Shown here: positions 10,658 to 17,940 of the stretch, in pieces | Position numbering within the stretch: position 1 is the first letter of the stretch | How the letters are laid out: each line of letters begins with the position of its first letter | NCBI GenBank assembly: GCA_033764315.1 | Contig: JANRJA010000210.1 | Span: 1 to 42,998, forward strand | Length of the DNA stretch: 42,998 nt | Origin: Oculatellaceae cyanobacterium bins.114 | GTDB lineage: Bacteria; Cyanobacteriota; Cyanobacteriia; Elainellales; Elainellaceae | Reading direction: 5' to 3' | The notes under the pieces: generated by a model | Database searches by the model: none | What the model was told of the DNA's origin: nothing | What the model saw: only the letters and a program-made list of their open reading frames with translations | Program-made: the position numbers and the translations under genes

Positions 10658-11254
10658 TTGGAGACTTTATTGAGCTTGATGTTGGGGGTAAGCCTCAGTG
10701 CTGCCTGTGGATTTCGGATTTTTGTGCCCATGTTGGCAATGAGTATTGCGGCACAGTCAGGGCATATGACGCTTGCCTCTGGGTTTGAGTGGATTGGCAC
10801 TCCTGAAGCCTTTGCGGCGTTTGCGATCGCCACCGTTCTCGAAGTGGGGGGCTACTATATTCCCTGGCTCGATAATGTGTTGGACACCGTTGCGACTCCA
10901 ACGGCGATCGTTGCAGGCACCATTGTGACCGCCTCTGCGGTGGGTGAGGTGAGTCCATTGCTGCAATGGACCTTAGCGGTGATCTTGGGCGGTGGGGCTG
11001 CTGGGTTAACTCAAGGCATGACCGATGTATTGCGAGTAGTGTCTACTTCGACCACCGCTGGGCTGGCAAATCCTGTGCTCTCGACGATGGAGTTGGGAAC
11101 AGCTGCAACCTTATCGGGGCTTGCCATCACTGCACCTGCTTTGGCGGGAGTTTTGGTGATTGGCTTATTAATCTTTTCGGTGCAAAAGCTCTGGAAATTT
11201 CTTCGTAAACGGTCTAAATCCAAAAGATCAGAGGCTCTAGCACAGTTGGAATGA
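10658..11254 (+). CDS. DUF4126-like membrane protein
   Basis: GVSLSAACGFRIFVP, LEVGGYYIPWLDNVLD and STTTAGLANPVLSTME motifs; several hydrophobic helices. Confidence 0.8.
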   Translation: METLLSLMLGVSLSAACGFRIFVPMLAMSIAAQSGHMTLASGFEWIGTPEAFAAFAIATVLEVGGYYIPWLDNVLDTVATPTAIVAGTIVTASAVGEVSPLLQWTLAVILGGGAAGLTQGMTDVLRVVSTSTTAGLANPVLSTMELGTAATLSGLAITAPALAGVLVIGLLIFSVQKLWKFLRKRSKSKRSEALAQLE

Positions 11255-11390
11255 GCGATCGTCGGCACACCAAGCCAAGATTGTGCAAATCGGATAGGAA
11301 CAAAAGGCATTGTGCTCTGATTGCTCTGATGGAATGGCTAAATCCTGGTACTGGGTTTTCCCTTCTATTCAATTAAGTTTAGTTGCCGGG

Positions 11391-11448
11391 TTTCGACTCC
11401 GCTCAACCCTCTTCTCGTCAGGAGTTGAACATTGAGCCTAGTCGAAAT
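11391..11448. repeat. REP-like inverted pair
   Basis: TTTCGACTCCGCTCAA and TTGAGCCTAGTCGAAA form an imperfect inverted repeat. Confidence 0.6.
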
Positions 11449-11796
11449 GCGTCTTACAAGTAATTACGTCTTCCTACGTGTTAGCTCTCAGTGATTTCTC
11501 AGCCAAGGCTAAACAACGCTTCATCCGAGGGTGGTTTACTAAGCCTAAATCAACCAAGTTCCTAAAACTAATTCTCCTGGATTCCAGGAAGGATTGGATT
11601 TGGGATGCGGAAATTTATGACCGATCCTCTCATCTCAAATAGGCTGAGCTAGTTGTACAGAATTTTGTTGCGGAGTGTCACTTGACCCCTATCCCCAATG
11701 AACCTCCCCTTGAACTAAGGGAAGGGTTGGAGAGAGGCGTTTTGTGGGGCTACTTTGTCATCGGATTTTGTATCAAACATTATTTAGGAGTGAAAC

Positions 11797-12051
11797 ATGA
11801 ACATGACTCGAAAACTGAGTATGGTGCTCGGTCTGCTTTTGGTTGCTGGTATGACTGCCTGTGCTAGTGAACCCAAGACTGAAGCGGCTCCCAGTGCTGC
11901 GCCTAGTGAGGCGATGGAATCTCCTGATGCCATGCAATCTCCTGATGCCATGCAATCTCCCGATGCAATGGAATCTCCTGACGCCATGAAGTCACCCGAT
12001 GCCATGGAGTCACCTGACGCGATGGAGTCTCCCAGTCCATCTCCGCAATAA
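11797..12051 (+). CDS. Small methionine-rich repeat lipoprotein
   Basis: RBS AGGAG upstream; signal peptide ending in lipobox MTAC; seven tandem (D/E)AM(E/Q/K)SP repeats with synonymous third-position variation in this frame. Confidence 0.88.
   Translation: MNMTRKLSMVLGLLLVAGMTACASEPKTEAAPSAAPSEAMESPDAMQSPDAMQSPDAMESPDAMKSPDAMESPDAMESPSPSPQ
11908..12033 (+). repeat. Seven 18-bp coding tandem repeats
   Basis: Units such as GATGCCATGCAATCTCCT encode EAMESP DAMQSP DAMQSP DAMESP DAMKSP DAMESP DAMESP. Confidence 0.95.
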
Positions 12052-12170
12052 AGAGTAGCGATTGGGATGGTGTCATCGTGTTTTAGAGTGGCAGCATCAA
12101 AGCCCTTTGTCTCGTCAGTGGATGGGTATAAACGACCACAGAAGCGAATTGTCTCTGTCACTAGTGAACT

Positions 12171-12776
12171 ATGAAAATAAATCGACTCCAGCGACGGCAA
12201 TTGCTTGGATATTTTGGGTTAGGAATTGTAGGTGCGGGTGCGACTGCCCTGCTGCTTCAGCGCAATACGCGGAGTAGCCTGCCAGAGCAAACTACCTCAC
12301 TTGCTGATGTTCCTGCTCCGAGTAACCCTTCTTCCCTCCCTGAACCGATGCACCTCCCAGAGTTTCAAGGCATCAGTCAATGGCTCAACTCTGAGCCTTT
12401 GACGATCGCTGACTTGCGGGGAAACGTAGTCCTGATTCAGTTTTGGACGTTTGCCTGCATTAATTGCATCCGCACGCTGCCCTATGTAGTGGGTTGGCAT
12501 CAGCAATATGCTGAGCAGGGGTTAAGGGTGATTGGCGTGCACTCCCCTGAGTTTGCCTTTGAGCGCGAGGTGAGCAATATCCAATCGGCGTTGACAGAGC
12601 ACCAGATTACCTATCCGGTTCCGTTGGATAACGAGTTCAAGACCTGGAAAGCTTACAAAAATCGATTTTGGCCCCATCTATTTTTGGCAGATCGAGATGG
12701 TATTTTGCGCTATGACCACATTGGTGAAGGGGCTTATGAAGAAACAGAGCAAACGATTCGGCGATTGCTCGGCTAG
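12171..12776 (+). CDS. Thioredoxin-fold redoxin (TlpA/DipZ-like) with a probable Tat signal
   Basis: FWTFACINC CxxC motif, GVHSPEFAFE and HIGEGAY; N-terminal QRRQLL followed by a hydrophobic stretch. Confidence 0.9.
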   Translation: MKINRLQRRQLLGYFGLGIVGAGATALLLQRNTRSSLPEQTTSLADVPAPSNPSSLPEPMHLPEFQGISQWLNSEPLTIADLRGNVVLIQFWTFACINCIRTLPYVVGWHQQYAEQGLRVIGVHSPEFAFEREVSNIQSALTEHQITYPVPLDNEFKTWKAYKNRFWPHLFLADRDGILRYDHIGEGAYEETEQTIRRLLG

Positions 12777-12797
12777 GGTGATAACGGGTTAAACGCT

Positions 12798-13499
12798 ATG
12801 GCACCCTCTCCACTGTCGTTGGGTCTGGCTCTCTTGGGAGGATTGTTGACCGTCCTCTCGCCGTGTATTTTGCCCATTTTGCCGATCATTGTGGGGCGAT
12901 CGCTACAATCTCATCGCTATGGTCCCATTGCGTTGGTGTTGGGGTTGGTGGGTGGGTTTGCACTGGCAGGCAGTTTGCTCGGCATTACGGCTAGTTGGTT
13001 AGCTCAGGTTGCCGATTTATTAAGGACTGGGGCGATCGCTCTACTGCTATTAGTAGGCTTGTTGGCACTCTTTCCAACCTGGAGTTATCGGCTTTTGAGT
13101 TATCTGCCCCTTAGTCAATGGCTGGGACGATGGAGCAAAGAGCCACATCTGGGGTTAACCGGAGAGTTTTGGTTAGGGACTCAACTGGGCTTACTCTGGA
13201 CTCCCTGTGCAGGTCCGGTGTTGGGCAGTATTCTTGTGTTAGCCGCCGTGGATCATCAAATCGGAGGATCGTTTGGATTGTTGGTGTTGTATGGCATTGG
13301 GGCGTCATTGCCGTTATTAGCGTTTGCCTATGGTGGACGGTATGCCAGTCGTCGCTTGCTCAACCTGCGGGCTCATAGTGCCACATTGCAACGAGTTGGC
13401 GGAGCGATCGTAGTGACTACGGCGATCGCCATTCTGTTAGGTTGGGATGTCCAGATTCAGCTTTGGCTCGCTCCATTTTTTCCCGCTCTATCGGTTTAA
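12798..13499 (+). CDS. ccdA: CcdA/DsbD transmembrane electron transporter
   Basis: Two Pro-Cys motifs, LSPCILPILP and WTPCAGPVL; about six TM helices. Confidence 0.88.
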   Translation: MAPSPLSLGLALLGGLLTVLSPCILPILPIIVGRSLQSHRYGPIALVLGLVGGFALAGSLLGITASWLAQVADLLRTGAIALLLLVGLLALFPTWSYRLLSYLPLSQWLGRWSKEPHLGLTGEFWLGTQLGLLWTPCAGPVLGSILVLAAVDHQIGGSFGLLVLYGIGASLPLLAFAYGGRYASRRLLNLRAHSATLQRVGGAIVVTTAIAILLGWDVQIQLWLAPFFPALSV

Positions 13500-13505
13500 T
13501 TTTTT

Positions 13506-14117
13506 ATGAGTGCTTCAGAGTCCATTCGACGTGCTAAAAAACCTCCAGTCGCGCCAAAACAAGCCCTTTTAGCTAAAGCGTTTCACTGGGTCAACATCAT
13601 CAGTTTGCTCTTGATGATCACGAGTGGGTTGCAAATCTATAATGCCAATCCGGTGTTTGGTGGACGAGCCGGTTGGCGGTTTCCCGATATTGTGTTGTTG
13701 GGTGGCTGGTTAGCGGGGGGGCGACACTGGCACTTTGCCATGATGTGGGTGTTTTCGCTCAACTTGTTGTTGTATGGACTCTTTATTGTCGTGAGTCGTC
13801 GCTGGAAACGGCGGTTTGTCTCCTCTAGCGATGTTGAGGTGCTGCAAAAAGGGCAAAATCCTAAACGCAAAACCTATGCCTGGCATCGATTGATTTACAC
13901 TGGCATTATTCCGGTGCTACTGCTGGCGATCGCGACAGGTTTAGCCATGTATAAGCCCGCTCATTTCTACTGGCTCTCTGGGTTGTTTGGCAGTTGGCAA
14001 ATCTTACGCACAGTTCACTTCATTACTGTGCCAATCGTTGTTTTATTCACACTCCTCCATTCGCTGCTGGCACTCAATGTCGGTCAGTTTCGGTTAGTCA
14101 AATCCATGTTTACCTGA
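13506..14117 (+). CDS. Membrane cytochrome b (hydrogenase cytochrome b type)
   Basis: About four TM helices with candidate heme ligands in FHWVN, GRHWHFAMMW, RTVHF and LLHS; also SGLQIYNANP. Confidence 0.85.
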   Translation: MSASESIRRAKKPPVAPKQALLAKAFHWVNIISLLLMITSGLQIYNANPVFGGRAGWRFPDIVLLGGWLAGGRHWHFAMMWVFSLNLLLYGLFIVVSRRWKRRFVSSSDVEVLQKGQNPKRKTYAWHRLIYTGIIPVLLLAIATGLAMYKPAHFYWLSGLFGSWQILRTVHFITVPIVVLFTLLHSLLALNVGQFRLVKSMFT

Positions 14118-14147
14118 TGTTTCCTGCTCTCACTTCACTCAACTGAT

Positions 14148-14882
14148 ATGCACCCCAATCAACCGTCTCATCCTGTCTCTCAAGGGGCACTGACGCGCCG
14201 TCGCCTGCTGCAATTGTCTGGATTATCTGGAGCTGGTCTGCTGTTGAGCGGTTGTCGTTCTACGCTGTTTTCTAAAGAACTCGATCAGACGTTTGAGCCG
14301 CTCAACCAGCGGGTTGAAGAATTGCTGTTGCGCCCTCAGTCTCCCGTTCCTGAATTTCCAGTTAGTGCGATCGAACCTGACAAATTGCTGATCAACACCT
14401 TTGACAATACGCCCCAACTTGACCCAACAACTTTCCGATTAAGCATCGAGGGGGATGTCAATCTGCCGATGCAACTCAGCATGACCGATCTGCAAAAGAT
14501 GCCACTGACATCGATGGTGATTCGCCATGTTTGTGTTGAAGGGTGGGCAGCCATCGTGCAGTGGGGAGGAGTGCGGTTGAGAGACTTAGCCGTGTTAGCG
14601 CAGCCCAAACCTGAAGCCCGCTATGTCTATTTCCAATCGGCGGATGGCTATTACGAAAGCTGGGATTTGGCGTCCTCCCTGCATCCACAAACATTGATGG
14701 TCTATCAAAAAAATGGTCAGCCTTTGTCAGTCGAAAATGGTGCACCCATTCGTCTGGCGTCTCCTATTAAGCTCGGCTATAAACAGAGCAAATGGGTGAC
14801 TCGCGTTATTTTCACCAGTCAGTTGATGGCACAGACCGGATATTGGGAAGACCGGGGCTATGAGTGGTTTGCTGGTTTATAA
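14148..14882 (+). CDS. Sulfite-oxidase-family molybdopterin oxidoreductase (MsrP/YedY/YuiH-like), Tat lipoprotein
   Basis: HVCVEGW (Mo-ligating Cys), NGAPIRLASPIKLGYKQSKWV and GYWEDRGY; N-terminal TRRRLL...LLSGC. Confidence 0.9.
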   Translation: MHPNQPSHPVSQGALTRRRLLQLSGLSGAGLLLSGCRSTLFSKELDQTFEPLNQRVEELLLRPQSPVPEFPVSAIEPDKLLINTFDNTPQLDPTTFRLSIEGDVNLPMQLSMTDLQKMPLTSMVIRHVCVEGWAAIVQWGGVRLRDLAVLAQPKPEARYVYFQSADGYYESWDLASSLHPQTLMVYQKNGQPLSVENGAPIRLASPIKLGYKQSKWVTRVIFTSQLMAQTGYWEDRGYEWFAGL

Positions 14883-14909
14883 AATATAAAAGTGAAGCAA
14901 GCGATAGAC

Positions 14910-15812
14910 TCAGTGCGATCGCTCACGAGATTGCAATAATCCTTTAATCTCTCGCCAAATCGTAGGTTCTCCAACATTGGCTTTGGGTTGAGTCAAAACA
15001 CCATGAGTCGGGCTAAACAACAGAGCCAACACAAATAACCCGGTGACGACTAGCACGATCGCTGGCCCCGATGGCAAGTTAAAGGCATAGCTCAAATACA
15101 TGCCGCTAATACTGGAAACGATGCCGATCGCGGCTCCTAGCGTCATCACTAAATGCAAGCGGCTGACCAACAAGTATGCGGTTGCCCCCGGTGTGATTAA
15201 CAACGACAGTACCAAAATCACACCAACGGCTTTCATGCTGGCGACGATCGTTAAAGCAATCAGCACCATCAAGCCAAAGTTGAGCAGATTGGTGGGCAAT
15301 CCTGCGGCTTGAGCCCCCAACGGATCAAAGGTGTAAAACAATAATTCCTTATACAACGCCACCACGACCACCAACACCACAACTGAAATTAAGGCAGTTT
15401 GCCAGACTTCGTCTGCGGTTACTCCTAAGATGTTGCCAAACAAAAAATGGTTTAGGTCGATTTTATTGTCGTGTTGAATCAGCGTGATCAGCGTGATGCC
15501 CAGGGCAAAACAGGCTGAAAAGACAATCCCCATAGCGGCATCTTCTTTAATCGGCGATCGCGCCCGAATCCAAGCGATCGCCATCGTACTCAAGATCCCT
15601 GCAATAAACGCCCCTACAAAAATATTGGCACCAATCATAAAGGCGATCGCCAACCCCGGCAACACCGAATGACTGATGGCATCTCCCAACAACGCCAAAC
15701 GTTGCACCATCAGGTAGCTGCCCACCACTGCACAGATTAGCCCAACCAACACCGCCACGATCAGTGCCCGTTGCATAAAACTGTATTGCAGAGGTTCGAG
15801 AAGAAAGTCCAT
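14910..15812 (-). CDS. mntB: Mn/Zn ABC transporter permease
   Basis: LLGDAISHSVLPG, EDAAMGIVFS, LFGNILGV and SGPAIVLV motifs. Confidence 0.88.
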   Translation of the reverse strand: MDFLLEPLQYSFMQRALIVAVLVGLICAVVGSYLMVQRLALLGDAISHSVLPGLAIAFMIGANIFVGAFIAGILSTMAIAWIRARSPIKEDAAMGIVFSACFALGITLITLIQHDNKIDLNHFLFGNILGVTADEVWQTALISVVVLVVVVALYKELLFYTFDPLGAQAAGLPTNLLNFGLMVLIALTIVASMKAVGVILVLSLLITPGATAYLLVSRLHLVMTLGAAIGIVSSISGMYLSYAFNLPSGPAIVLVVTGLFVLALLFSPTHGVLTQPKANVGEPTIWREIKGLLQSRERSH

Positions 15813-15830
15813 AGCAGGAGATTAAAGATA

Positions 15831-15968
15831 GGAATGGAAGAGACGCGATTGATCGCGTCTACATTGGGGAATGGAAGAGACGCGATTGATCGCGTCTGTA
15901 ATGGGGGAGAGACGCAATTAATCGCGTCTACATTGGGGAAGTGAGAGAGATGCAATTAATCGGGCTAC
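15831..15968. repeat. Cluster of four REP-like palindromes (core AGACGCGATT(G/A)ATCGCGTCT)
   Basis: Two near-identical 37-bp units plus two more diverged units between mntA and mntB. Confidence 0.9.
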
Positions 15969-15978
15969 CCATCCACCC

Positions 15979-16818
15979 TTATGCTGCAAAGGCAACTCTG
16001 CCGCCATAGGTTTGATACAGATTCTCTTGGGTCAAGACCGCAGTGCGATCGCCATGAGCAATGAGCGACTGGTTCAGCAAAATCAGATCGTCAAAATGTT
16101 GAATGCTCTCACCCAAGTCATGGCTGACGACTAGTACAAGCTTGTTAGCAGCTGCTAATTCATGAAAAATATCAAAAATAATGTCTTCAGTCTTTTGGTC
16201 GATGCCAACAAAAGGTTCATCAAAGCAAAACACTTCGGCTTCTTGGGTCAGGGCACGAGCGATGAAAACTCGCTGTTGTTGACCTCCAGAGAGTTGACCA
16301 ATGGGGCGATCGCGATAGGCCGTCATGCCCACCCGGTCAAGCGCAGCAGTGGCAACCCGACGGCTCACCGTTGAGAACCGCTGAAACCAGCCTGTTTTCT
16401 GAACTCGACCCATCATCACAACATCCCAAACCGTAGCTGGATAGCTCCAATCAATTTGCGATCGCTGCGGCACATAGGCAACGCGATCGCGTTGTTCAAC
16501 TAAGGGGCGATCGCCATAGACGACTTCACCTTGAGAGGGCACCAACCCCAACATGGCTTTAATCAACGTGCTCTTACCTGCCCCATTAGGCCCAAAGATA
16601 CCTGTCAACCGTCCGGGTTGAATGGTCAAGTTGACGTCCTTGAGAGCCTCAACTAATCGATAATTGACTCGCAACCGACTGACCTGAATGGCATTTGCAG
16701 TGGTGCTCACTCGCCCATCTATAGACACTGGCCGAAACACACGCTGAGGAGGATTGGGATAATTTGGGCTGCTATCAACCGTTAATGAATATGGCAACGC
16801 TCTCATGTTCATGCCCAA
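15979..16818 (-). CDS. mntA: Mn/Zn ABC transporter ATP-binding protein
   Basis: Walker A GPNGAGKS, YVPQ, signature LSGGQQQR, FDEPF and H-loop VSHD. The start codon is uncertain. Confidence 0.9.
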   Translation of the reverse strand: MGMNMRALPYSLTVDSSPNYPNPPQRVFRPVSIDGRVSTTANAIQVSRLRVNYRLVEALKDVNLTIQPGRLTGIFGPNGAGKSTLIKAMLGLVPSQGEVVYGDRPLVEQRDRVAYVPQRSQIDWSYPATVWDVVMMGRVQKTGWFQRFSTVSRRVATAALDRVGMTAYRDRPIGQLSGGQQQRVFIARALTQEAEVFCFDEPFVGIDQKTEDIIFDIFHELAAANKLVLVVSHDLGESIQHFDDLILLNQSLIAHGDRTAVLTQENLYQTYGGRVAFAA

Positions 16819-16853
16819 AGACCTCCAATCCCCGTGTAGTAGGTGGACTTAAA

Positions 16854-16872
16854 AATGAAAAGATAATGAAAA
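16854..16872. promoter_or_regulatory. Probable ManR-type direct-repeat operator
   Basis: AATGAAAA-GAT-AATGAAAA in the divergent mntA/mntC spacer fits the recalled ManR consensus (T/A)ATGA(G/A)A(A/G)-N3-repeat. Confidence 0.7.
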
Positions 16873-16992
16873 GCTCTTTCATTCCCATTTAAGCAAAAAA
16901 TGAATGAAAAATGAAAATAACTTAAGGTAGGTTTTTAAGGGTGAATTTAGAGTCTTTCTCCAGAAACAGAAGCAATATAGGTAGAAATTCTT

Positions 16993-17940
16993 ATGAGATG
17001 GTGGTGCAAAAAAACACGGTTTAGAGGAGCGATCGCCGCATTTCTAATAGGGCTTTGGGTGACTGCCTGTACTCCCGACGACGGTATTTCGACGAGTGGC
17101 AAACCGTTAGTCGTCGCAACCAGTACCGTGATTGCAGATTGGACTGAGCAGGTGGCGGGCGATGCCATTCAATTGCGCGGCATCTTAAAGCCAGGGGTTG
17201 ACCCACATGTCTATGAGCCTGTGCCCGCTGACAGTGTTGCCTTTGAAGAAGCTGACCTGATTCTCTATAACGGCTATAACCTGGAACCGGGATTGATTCG
17301 CATCATGAATGCAGCAGGGGCAGAAGCCCCCAAACTGGCGGTGGGTGAAGTGGTGCAACCCCTGGAAATGGACAAACAGGGGGAACGAGTGCCCGATCCT
17401 CATGTGTGGGGCAATGTGCAAAATGCGATCGCCATGACTCAGGCCATTCAAGATGCTTTGAGCCAGCTTTTACCTCAAAACCAGGCCACATTTACTGACA
17501 ATGGCGATCGCTTCAAAGCTGAGCTAGAGCGACTGCACACCTGGATTGGCGAACAGATTGCCACGATTTCACCCGATCAACGCAAGCTAATCACGACTCA
17601 TGATGCGTTTGAATATTATGCTCAGGCTTATGGCTTAGACGTAGTAGGAACTCTGATTGGCATTAGCACCGAAGAGCAACCCAGTGCCCAAACCGTGCAA
17701 AGGCTGGTGGAATCAGTCAAATCTACTGGAGTCCCGGCGATCTTTGCCGAAACCACCATCAACCCGCGACTCATTACAACGGTGGCTGAAGAATCTGGTA
17801 TCGCACTTTCGCCTCAACAGCTCTACTCAGACTCCATCGGTGCCCCTGGAAGCAACGGAGACTCCTATATCAAAATGATGGTCGCCAATACCCAGGCGAT
17901 CGTCGAAGCATTGGGTGGGCGATATACCCCATTTGAATAA
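16993..17940 (+). CDS. mntC: Mn ABC transporter substrate-binding lipoprotein
   Basis: Lipobox VTAC; DPHVYEP, DPHVW, STEEQPS and LYSDS give a His/His/Glu/Asp ligand set; no His-rich ZnuA loop. Confidence 0.85.
   Translation: MRWWCKKTRFRGAIAAFLIGLWVTACTPDDGISTSGKPLVVATSTVIADWTEQVAGDAIQLRGILKPGVDPHVYEPVPADSVAFEEADLILYNGYNLEPGLIRIMNAAGAEAPKLAVGEVVQPLEMDKQGERVPDPHVWGNVQNAIAMTQAIQDALSQLLPQNQATFTDNGDRFKAELERLHTWIGEQIATISPDQRKLITTHDAFEYYAQAYGLDVVGTLIGISTEEQPSAQTVQRLVESVKSTGVPAIFAETTINPRLITTVAEESGIALSPQQLYSDSIGAPGSNGDSYIKMMVANTQAIVEALGGRYTPFE

Follow-up and report, generated by a model that had tools for sequence, protein, structure and literature searches.

Bacteria repair oxidized methionine outside the cytoplasm by two routes that have so far been described only separately. 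In Azospira suillum, the methionine-rich peptide MrpX is highly induced by hypochlorite, which quickly oxidizes it, and the molybdenum (Mo) enzyme YedY has been proposed to regenerate it (PMC4436054). The bcrXQP genes of Brucella melitensis are induced by hypochlorous acid (HOCl) and contribute to HOCl resistance, and the MXKDX family is called homologous to MrpX (PMC8315932). Descriptions of such sacrificial methionine-rich sinks with recycling by MsrPQ have to date come from Proteobacteria. The second route, from CcdA or DsbD through a thioredoxin to exported MsrAB, is established for CcdA-Etrx-MsrAB2 in Streptococcus pneumoniae (PMC3914529) and has been tabulated for other species in a 2026 review (PMC13488963); it is described mostly in host-associated bacteria. 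Here, we analyze a five-gene cluster on contig JANRJA010000210.1 (assembly GCA_033764315.1) of Oculatellaceae cyanobacterium bins.114; this whole stretch of 42,998 nt is called the window below. The products are a lipoprotein with methionine repeats, a DipZ-type thioredoxin, CcdA, a membrane cytochrome b, and an exported Mo enzyme. As judged from sequence comparison, they would form an extracytoplasmic defense against methionine oxidation built around the lipoprotein, an overall reading to which we assign a probability of roughly 60%, and the cluster probably joins the two routes.

The window shares with MrpX-YedY1Z1 and BcrXQP the combination of an exported methionine-rich repeat protein, a Mo enzyme of the sulfite oxidase (SUOX) fold exported by the twin-arginine translocation (Tat) system, and a membrane b-type cytochrome. 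For comparison, we assembled 80 cyanobacterial loci whose Mo enzyme orthologue is 64–80% identical to that of the window; an exported methionine-rich repeat open reading frame (ORF) is present in 31 of the 80, so that the arrangement of a methionine-rich gene with a Mo enzyme and a cytochrome is not confined to the window, although both enzyme and cytochrome are of non-canonical types. Several features set the window apart from MrpX and BcrX: the presumed sink is a lipoprotein instead of a soluble peptide, its repeat is an acidic hexapeptide that does not match the MXKDX model, the Mo enzyme belongs to a shorter clade scoring below the MsrP cut-off, the cytochrome is of the PF01292 family and not of the ferric-reductase-domain (FRD) type of MsrQ (PF01794), a thioredoxin-CcdA module comes in addition, the genes belong to a cyanobacterium, and some related loci are flanked by sigma factors of the SigK/RskA rather than the SigF/NrsF type. 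With CcdA-Etrx-MsrAB2 of S. pneumoniae, and with the MsrAB proteins of Haemophilus, Fusobacterium, and Neisseria that are fed by thioredoxin/CcdA or DsbD, the window has in common that CcdA and an exported thioredoxin are encoded together (PMC3914529, PMC13488963). It differs from them in that MsrA and MsrB are separate proteins unlinked to the cluster in its own genome, in that the thioredoxin is of the DipZ type with a Tat leader, and in that a Mo enzyme, a cytochrome b, and what appears to be a dedicated methionine-rich substrate accompany the module. The original prediction, made from the letters of the window alone, knew of no characterized cyanobacterial version of such a system, and none is described in the literature searched, subscription journals and preprint supplements being outside its reach. 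A transcriptome study of Limnospira noted an MsrP-like gene and did not find MsrQ (PMC8400943).

The lipoprotein has an N-terminal hydrophobic leader that closes with the lipobox-like sequence GMTAC (Cys22) and is followed by seven units in the order EAMESP, DAMQSP, DAMQSP, DAMESP, DAMKSP, DAMESP, and DAMESP. The mature chain of 63 residues contains seven Met (11%), 24% charged residues, and no His. Tandem Repeats Finder describes the underlying DNA, at 11914–12032, as 6.6 copies of an 18-nt period with 83% matches and a score of 140. Pairwise comparison of the repeat units yields 48 synonymous and 20 non-synonymous codon differences; this synonymous excess fits selection and suggests, therefore, that the peptide of the plus frame is what is conserved. 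A 138-aa antisense ORF at 11784–12200 was discounted as a by-product of the repeat, and a Pfam Osteopontin match of the lipoprotein (18.7 bits, below the cut-off of 25) was dismissed as low-complexity, as were matches of its methionine-rich relatives to IgA-binding proteins. The closest relative (59% identity, tblastn) lies in another cyanobacterial locus, L001:2662-2880, and carries SPDAME repeats. Within its own genome, the protein is the sole DAM-type methionine-rich lipoprotein among 36,199 ORFs of 40–300 aa. Two other methionine-rich proteins are encoded there. The first (contig C243:18992-19690, plus strand) is a Met/His-rich lipoprotein of 232 aa with two repeated halves containing HHEGAV, which looks like a copper-binding protein of the CopM/DUF305 type and plainly differs from the lipoprotein with DAM repeats. 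The second (contig C188:27677-28270, minus strand), of about 180–200 aa, has a PMQPMQ/MQM stretch with 14 Met in 40 residues, a Cys-rich, zinc-ribbon-like C-terminal end, and no obvious signal peptide; a relative of it is found at L011:2699-3226 (minus strand), about 0.8 kb downstream of msrB in a Mo enzyme cluster.

Across the 31 methionine-rich family members, the leader, the lipobox (29 of 31), and an Ala/Gly-Met core persist, while the repeat unit varies by lineage (DAMKG, KDKAGDAM, SPDAMK, SPDAME, AMEE). Met makes up 7–19% of the mature chain (median 11%) at spacings of mostly 5, 6, or 9 residues, and His is present in only three members. A possible relationship to operons with MXKDX-repeat proteins, raised in the original prediction, holds for part of the family: of 12 methionine-rich ORFs scanned with the MXKDX model TIGR02953 (MrpX/BcrX type, cut-off 41 bits), comprising 11 syntenic relatives and one ORF of another type, three pass, namely those of L016 (89 bits), L080 (61.8), and L028 (53.4), while those of L050, L007, L029, and L002 remain at 33.1–17.7 bits and five give no match. 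The model finds nothing in the whole genome of the window's host. Run over 301 genomes of the phylum, it gave no hit above cut-off, in a search that also missed genomes known to carry the cluster; four weak matches in three genomes proved to be translated simple DNA repeats without export signals and were rejected. In two loci (L002:6208-6459 and L019:6817-7026, plus strand), a methionine-rich lipoprotein of the AMEE/AMED type that ends in PCA[AP]E lies downstream of the Mo gene and not upstream of the thioredoxin gene.

Gene neighborhoods were compared across the 80 loci, in which thioredoxin or CcdA was counted as present on a match of at least 150 aa, and methionine-rich ORFs were found by a compositional scan that does not rely on BLAST. 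Thioredoxin and CcdA occur together in 32 loci, usually in the order methionine-rich gene, thioredoxin, CcdA, cytochrome, Mo enzyme, and in some cases with the thioredoxin-CcdA pair divergent from the cytochrome-Mo pair. Because the same gene set is conserved in other cyanobacteria, its arrangement in the window is not a matter of chance. A methionine-rich ORF accompanies 29 of the 32 loci with the full module, and only two of the 48 without it (2/30 when only loci with at least 3 kb of upstream and 1.5 kb of downstream sequence are counted). The finding of a methionine-rich gene clustered with the window's Mo enzyme thus survives the check that had been proposed for it, a search for such a partner in homologous loci. 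The further claim that this sink is tied to an MsrPQ-like Mo/cytochrome pair stands insofar as the partner recurs at homologous loci; what it tracks, however, is thioredoxin-CcdA and not the cytochrome-Mo pair alone. The two exceptions (L026 and L036), which are near-identical Nostoc loci, have the methionine-rich gene upstream of the cytochrome-Mo pair with no thioredoxin-CcdA detected. In the window itself, the five ORFs, which occupy 11797–14882 on the plus strand with intergenic gaps of 119, 21, 6, and 30 bp, confirm the predicted co-oriented genes, coordinates, and gaps, and the gene identities given earlier (lipoprotein, Tat-type CxxC thioredoxin, CcdA, cytochrome b, Mo enzyme) are correct in every particular (Table 1).

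Table 1. Features of the five-gene cluster and its immediate surroundings, in positions of the window.
Feature	Positions	Strand	Characteristics
Methionine-rich lipoprotein, 84 aa	11797-12051	+	Signal peptide, lipobox Cys22, seven [ED]AM[EQK]SP units
Tandem array coding for the hexapeptide units, 18-nt period	11907-12033	+	Tandem Repeats Finder scores 140 and 156
DipZ-type thioredoxin-fold protein, 201 aa	12171-12776	+	Twin-arginine leader, C96-I-N-C99
CcdA-type thiol-disulfide electron transporter, membrane, 233 aa	12798-13499	+	DsbD_TM
Membrane cytochrome b, 203 aa	13506-14117	+	PF01292 (bacterial b561 / Ni-hydrogenase cytochrome b)
SUOX-fold Mo enzyme, Tat-exported lipoprotein, 244 aa	14148-14882	+	PF00174; YedY/MsrP-like, separate clade
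Weak sigma-70-like promoter match, TTGTCA-17 nt-CATTAT	11755-11783	+	14 nt before the first start codon

Mapped onto the tree of the Mo enzyme, the thioredoxin-CcdA module requires 17 changes on the best tree, of which at least five are forced by supported branches. The methionine-rich gene goes with thioredoxin-CcdA in 4.8 of five independent pairs (sign test p ~0.06, a test that with five pairs cannot reach 0.05). Among 300 further genomes sampled from the phylum, the Mo enzyme orthologue is present in 44, and a thioredoxin orthologue of at least 60% identity in four, with one broken copy besides; none of these copies is more than about 3 kb away from the Mo gene. The cytochrome and the Mo enzyme are thus the core. 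The methionine-rich gene, thioredoxin, and CcdA make up an accessory module, which the sampled genomes show nowhere but next to that core. One of the loci (L063) is on a contig of a metagenome-assembled genome of Tatlockia sp. and holds a full cluster of the cyanobacterial type, with a Mo enzyme 73% identical to that of the window; it is probably a mis-binned cyanobacterial contig and not a gene of Legionellales.

The neighbors of the cluster were surveyed by clustering all ORFs of the 80 loci and scanning the representatives. An exported MsrA (PF01625, E 6e-58), which has a signal or anchor at its N terminus, is encoded in nine loci, in six of them between CcdA and the cytochrome, and an exported MsrB (PF01641, E 1e-50, with a signal peptide) follows just after the Mo enzyme in five. 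Altogether, 14 of the 80 loci, including nine of the 32 with thioredoxin and CcdA, have msrA or msrB within the cluster or next to it; of the other five, four are truncated upstream. The chain CcdA-thioredoxin-Msr is thus physically linked in 9/32 loci, while in the window's genome only CcdA and thioredoxin adjoin and Msr is found on another contig. There, an msrB-msrA pair on contig C217 (L087:1432-2765, minus strand), near the contig end, encodes two products with export signals that are 50–68% identical to the cluster-embedded copies; the genome's own cytoplasmic MsrA is 38–45% identical to them. The C217 pair is orthologous to the copies embedded in the clusters of other cyanobacteria. The loci with thioredoxin and CcdA also include all those flanked by an extracytoplasmic function (ECF) sigma factor (PRK12519, 281.8 bits against a cut-off of 222; six loci) or an anti-sigma factor of the RskA type (five loci). 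The mrpX and bcrX genes are controlled by SigF/NrsF and BcrS/AbcS, respectively, and the sigma/anti-sigma genes beside the related loci recall this control; together with the ORFs that pass the MXKDX model, they add to the likeness with MrpX and BcrX. Just upstream of the methionine-rich gene or the cytochrome gene, seven loci encode a secreted protein of about 125 aa without a Pfam match (L016:1638-2060, L017:1060-1437, L028:683-1060, L034:602-979, L041:3824-4267, L047:3068-3445, and L048:3111-3482), which may be a further accessory component.

The thioredoxin-fold protein matches AhpC-TSA (47.4 bits) and Redoxin (43.8 bits), and all 35 orthologues compared keep the twin arginines R8 and R9 and the active-site cysteines C96 and C99. 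Among solved structures, it comes closest to the C-terminal domain of M. tuberculosis DipZ (2hyx, E 8e-44), with a CINC motif common to both, and its thioredoxin domain is also related to that of the chloroplast protein SOQ1 (E 1.2e-21). The likeness to DipZ extends to CcdA, whose gene follows that of the thioredoxin in the window; the two are, however, separate genes here and fused in DipZ. We know of no established substrate of DipZ itself. Frames of 479–561 aa with a thioredoxin domain 34–50% identical to that of the window were observed in several genomes, including G005, G062, G148, and G156; these are probably fused DipZ-like CcdA-thioredoxins, in which case split and fused forms would both occur in the phylum. 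CcdA matches DsbD_TM with 46.8 bits (gathering cut-off 27.1), and 31 orthologues all retain its two membrane-embedded cysteines, C23 and C137. A second copy in the genome, on contig C127, is 28% identical and presumably the housekeeping CcdA. The thioredoxin-CcdA arm had been predicted to serve general thiol repair, which is not the best reading of the comparison. Across the five products, there is no conserved Cys usable as a thioredoxin substrate, the only invariant cysteines outside thioredoxin and CcdA being those of the lipobox and the Mo ligand; because of this, and because msrA and msrB are embedded in the cluster elsewhere, the arm more likely feeds electrons to exported MsrA and MsrB.

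The Mo enzyme matches the Oxidored_molyb family PF00174 with 116.2 bits (cut-off 24). R17, R18, the lipobox Cys C36, and C129-V130-E131 are invariant in an alignment of 27 sequences, as is W133 in the set that includes canonical MsrP. The genome of the window holds such a canonical MsrP on contig C32 (L083:1162-2154, plus strand; 330 aa; 409.9 bits with the MsrP model NF003767), and the motif Cys-Val-Glu-(Gly/Ala)-Trp is common to the two proteins. Of the models compared, that of MsrP gives the window enzyme its best score (92.1 bits, against 58.5 for SoxC, 48.8 for SorA, and 24 for SorT). Among solved structures, E. coli YedY is nearest in sequence (1xdq, E 8.9e-18), with sulfite oxidases at about 1e-7; in fold, YedY again comes first, at E 1.3e-15 (1xdy/1xdq) and narrowly ahead of SorA at 1.1e-13, on a structure model of moderate quality (mean pLDDT 71.9) that was kept out of active-site arguments. 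The enzyme thus resembles E. coli MsrP in its Tat export, in the Mo-ligand Cys within CVE(A/G)W, and in being closest to it among solved structures, and the pair resembles MsrP/MsrQ in having a membrane b-type cytochrome as partner, as implied by gene adjacency. It differs from MsrP in being a lipoprotein, in its 30% identity to the MsrP of its own genome, in the segments mentioned below, and in a partner of another family. From this relatedness and the gene neighborhood, we infer methionine sulfoxide as the substrate; the assignment is held at that strength because the enzyme scores below the MsrP cut-off and lacks MsrP segments, and because a canonical MsrP is encoded elsewhere. Searches of a protein atlas returned only generic names, such as "molybdopterin-dependent oxidoreductase", in cyanobacterial clusters. 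The C32 MsrP itself has a Tat motif and a lipobox-like LIGC, with no MsrQ gene beside it, and the PF01292 cytochrome of the window is one candidate for its partner.

The cytochrome b matches Ni_hydr_CYTB (PF01292) with 65.1 bits (gathering cut-off 30.1), and its 26 orthologues share five invariant histidines as candidate heme ligands, H27, H76, H127, H171, and H185. It had been proposed as a hydrogenase-type cytochrome b standing in for MsrQ. Its assignment to PF01292 and not to PF01794 agrees with this; yet it is not a hydrogenase subunit itself, as it reaches only 32.7 bits with the subunit model TIGR02125 (cut-off 121.5). PF01794, the family of MsrQ, has a single match in the genome, in a 456-aa frame on contig C207 (L084). 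No relative of the cytochrome was detected by sequence among solved structures at E ≤ 0.1. Upstream sequence of at least 700 nt is available for 76 loci, and in 62 of them a full-length cytochrome gene immediately precedes the Mo gene. Of 13 loci without a full gene, five (L003, L004, L013, L059, and L066) keep remnants of 47–154 aa (tblastn) beside an intact Mo gene, mostly in Nostoc, and each of five such genomes tested (those of L005, L010, L012, L054, and L075) holds an intact cytochrome orthologue (62–63% identity) and one Mo enzyme orthologue, on different contigs. Other loci of the Nostoc type have the Mo gene placed after rplU-rpmA, which encode ribosomal proteins. No paper pairing an enzyme of the sulfite oxidase family with a cytochrome b561 was found in the literature within reach, which excluded subscription journals and bioRxiv supplements.

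Taken together, we favor a view of the locus as a cyanobacterial variant in which an MrpX/MsrPQ-like sink and reductase are combined with the CcdA-thioredoxin-Msr route, a view that we hold with more confidence as a whole than for any single step. The defense would face the periplasm or the thylakoid lumen. The lipoprotein would hang from the membrane as a flexible, His-free chain with one Met per six residues, and its Met residues would be oxidized to methionine sulfoxide by HOCl, chloramines, H2O2, or singlet oxygen, sparing envelope proteins. Two routes would return the sink, and other oxidized envelope proteins, to methionine. In the first, electrons would pass from quinol through the PF01292 cytochrome b to the Tat-exported Mo enzyme, which, like MsrP, would reduce methionine sulfoxide within proteins. 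In the second, for which synteny and the known pathways are the guide, they would pass from cytoplasmic thioredoxin through CcdA to the exported DipZ-type thioredoxin and on to exported MsrA and MsrB, whose genes are on another contig in this genome and inside the cluster in other cyanobacteria. A more specific version is offered only tentatively: a membrane-tethered methionine buffer fed both by plastoquinol, through the MsrPQ-analogous pair, and by cytoplasmic thioredoxin, through split-DipZ CcdA/thioredoxin and MsrA/MsrB, which would perhaps face the lumen and shield the photosynthetic machinery. In Synechocystis, proximity labeling has located Sll1680, an exported MsrB, to the thylakoid lumen, close to the oxygen-evolving complex of photosystem II (PMC9764255).

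Several observations weigh against the methionine-defense reading. On the side of the sink, the window lipoprotein has no match to TIGR02953, and its mature chain, with 11% Met and 24% charged residues, falls short of the 20% and 44% reported for MrpX (PMC4436054); no DAM-type methionine-rich ORF was found in three loci that have thioredoxin and CcdA (L053, L064, and L078). No msrA or msrB gene is present in the window's own cluster. On the side of the reductase, the Mo enzyme remains below the cut-off of the MsrP model (92.1 against 207 bits), the fold search parts YedY from sulfite dehydrogenases only weakly, and a full cytochrome gene is missing beside the Mo gene in 13/76 loci, mostly of Nostoc. 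Three parts of the canonical MsrP of the same genome are absent from the clade of the window enzyme: the NNFYEFG segment, a loop of 18 residues, and a C-terminal stretch of ~45. The NNFYEFG segment is one that we take to line the active site of MsrP. Since the genome already holds that MsrP, no further methionine sulfoxide reductase is needed. Finally, 46 of the 48 loci without thioredoxin-CcdA have no methionine-rich ORF, many of them with the cytochrome-Mo pair in place; the methionine-rich gene follows thioredoxin-CcdA and not this pair, and the pair would therefore be independent of the sink.

Much of this bears on the alternative that survives best, in which the locus is a mixed redox island: the cytochrome and Mo enzyme would act on some other small substrate, such as sulfite or an S- or N-oxide, and only thioredoxin, CcdA, MsrA/B, and the lipoprotein would concern methionine. 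We consider it unlikely, with a weight that it owes to the core being far more widespread than the module: the cytochrome-Mo pair mostly occurs without thioredoxin-CcdA or a methionine-rich gene, and the Mo enzyme is found in 44 of the 300 sampled genomes against four or five for the thioredoxin. The low MsrP score, the missing segments, the second MsrP, and the sulfite dehydrogenases as close seconds in the fold search are all in keeping with it. Against this, MsrP remains the best-scoring model, E. coli YedY leads the solved relatives by ten orders of magnitude in E-value, and the CVE(G/A)W motif is common to the Mo enzyme and canonical MsrP. The gene neighborhood likewise counts against the alternative, as every high-identity thioredoxin orthologue in the 300-genome sample adjoins the Mo gene, msrB comes directly after that gene in five loci, msrA sits between CcdA and the cytochrome in six, and the methionine-rich gene of L026 and L036 is upstream of the cytochrome-Mo pair even where no thioredoxin-CcdA was detected.

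Copper or silver handling, the chief rival reading for a methionine-rich protein of the envelope, is an improbable explanation. Under it, the lipoprotein would bind Cu(I), thioredoxin-CcdA would act like the copper-tolerance module ScsB/ScsD, and the Mo enzyme and cytochrome would handle copper-induced oxidation. Cu(I) sites typically have MxxM or MxM motifs; these were not seen in the methionine-rich family, in which Met spacings are 5, 6, or 9 and 28 of 31 members are without His, and the CopM/DUF305-like C243 lipoprotein encoded in this genome, rich in Met and His, is of quite another kind. The analogy with ScsB draws on PMC3322552, and methionine-rich segments do serve as Cu(I) ligands in CueO-type proteins (PMC11494321). 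At L053, a methionine-rich DUF305 protein (27.7 bits, cut-off 27) is encoded upstream of the cytochrome in place of a DAM-type ORF, a CusS/HprS-like two-component system flanks about 10 loci and resembles heavy-metal sensor kinases at scores below the family cut-offs (TIGR01386, 236.1 bits against 292.55), and metal ABC transporter genes adjoin the window cluster. The 25 most recurrent neighbor families of the 80 loci, however, include no pump, oxidase, or chaperone for copper, msrA and msrB are among the recurrent neighbors, and a query with the DUF4126 gene upstream of the cluster, the sole flanking gene so tested, matched 0/80 related loci. That the lipoprotein is only a disordered, low-complexity tether or spacer with incidental Met, or a functionless short ORF, is very improbable: its Met content is modest (11%), the unit varies widely across lineages, and no family model matches it, but Met and the preceding Ala/Gly are constant in every repeat type while other positions vary, codon differences among the repeats are mostly synonymous, 29/31 members retain signal peptide and lipobox, the gene is gained and lost together with thioredoxin-CcdA, and no other DAM-type lipoprotein exists among the 36,199 ORFs of the genome.

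The preferred reading, a methionine-oxidation defense around the lipoprotein, suggests that oxygenic phototrophs, in which reactive oxygen is made next to membranes, have merged the two routes around a lipoprotein sink and that a cytochrome of a different family can serve a YedY-like Mo enzyme. If it is true, it would provide a function for the widespread cyanobacterial pair annotated as molybdopterin-dependent oxidoreductase and cytochrome b, a candidate physiological partner for DipZ-type thioredoxins, and a testable route of methionine repair outside the cyanobacterial cytoplasm.

At the borders of the cluster, the promoter match listed in Table 1 is the sole promoter-like site in 11200–15100; shuffled sequences average 3.8 such sites, so that it is not significant by itself. 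A GGAG is located 6–9 nt 5' of the ATG of the lipoprotein gene. The 119-nt gap after this gene shows no RNA structure (z = 0.57; 143 of 200 shuffles fold as well), and a terminator scan found none in it. On the upstream side, the DUF4126 gene is 542 bp away from the cluster. On the downstream side, the end of a convergent metal ABC permease gene is 27 bp past the stop codon of the Mo gene. This permease gene belongs to a divergent metal ABC transporter set at 14910–17940, composed of a permease and an ATPase on the minus strand and a ZnuA/MntC-type binding protein on the plus strand.

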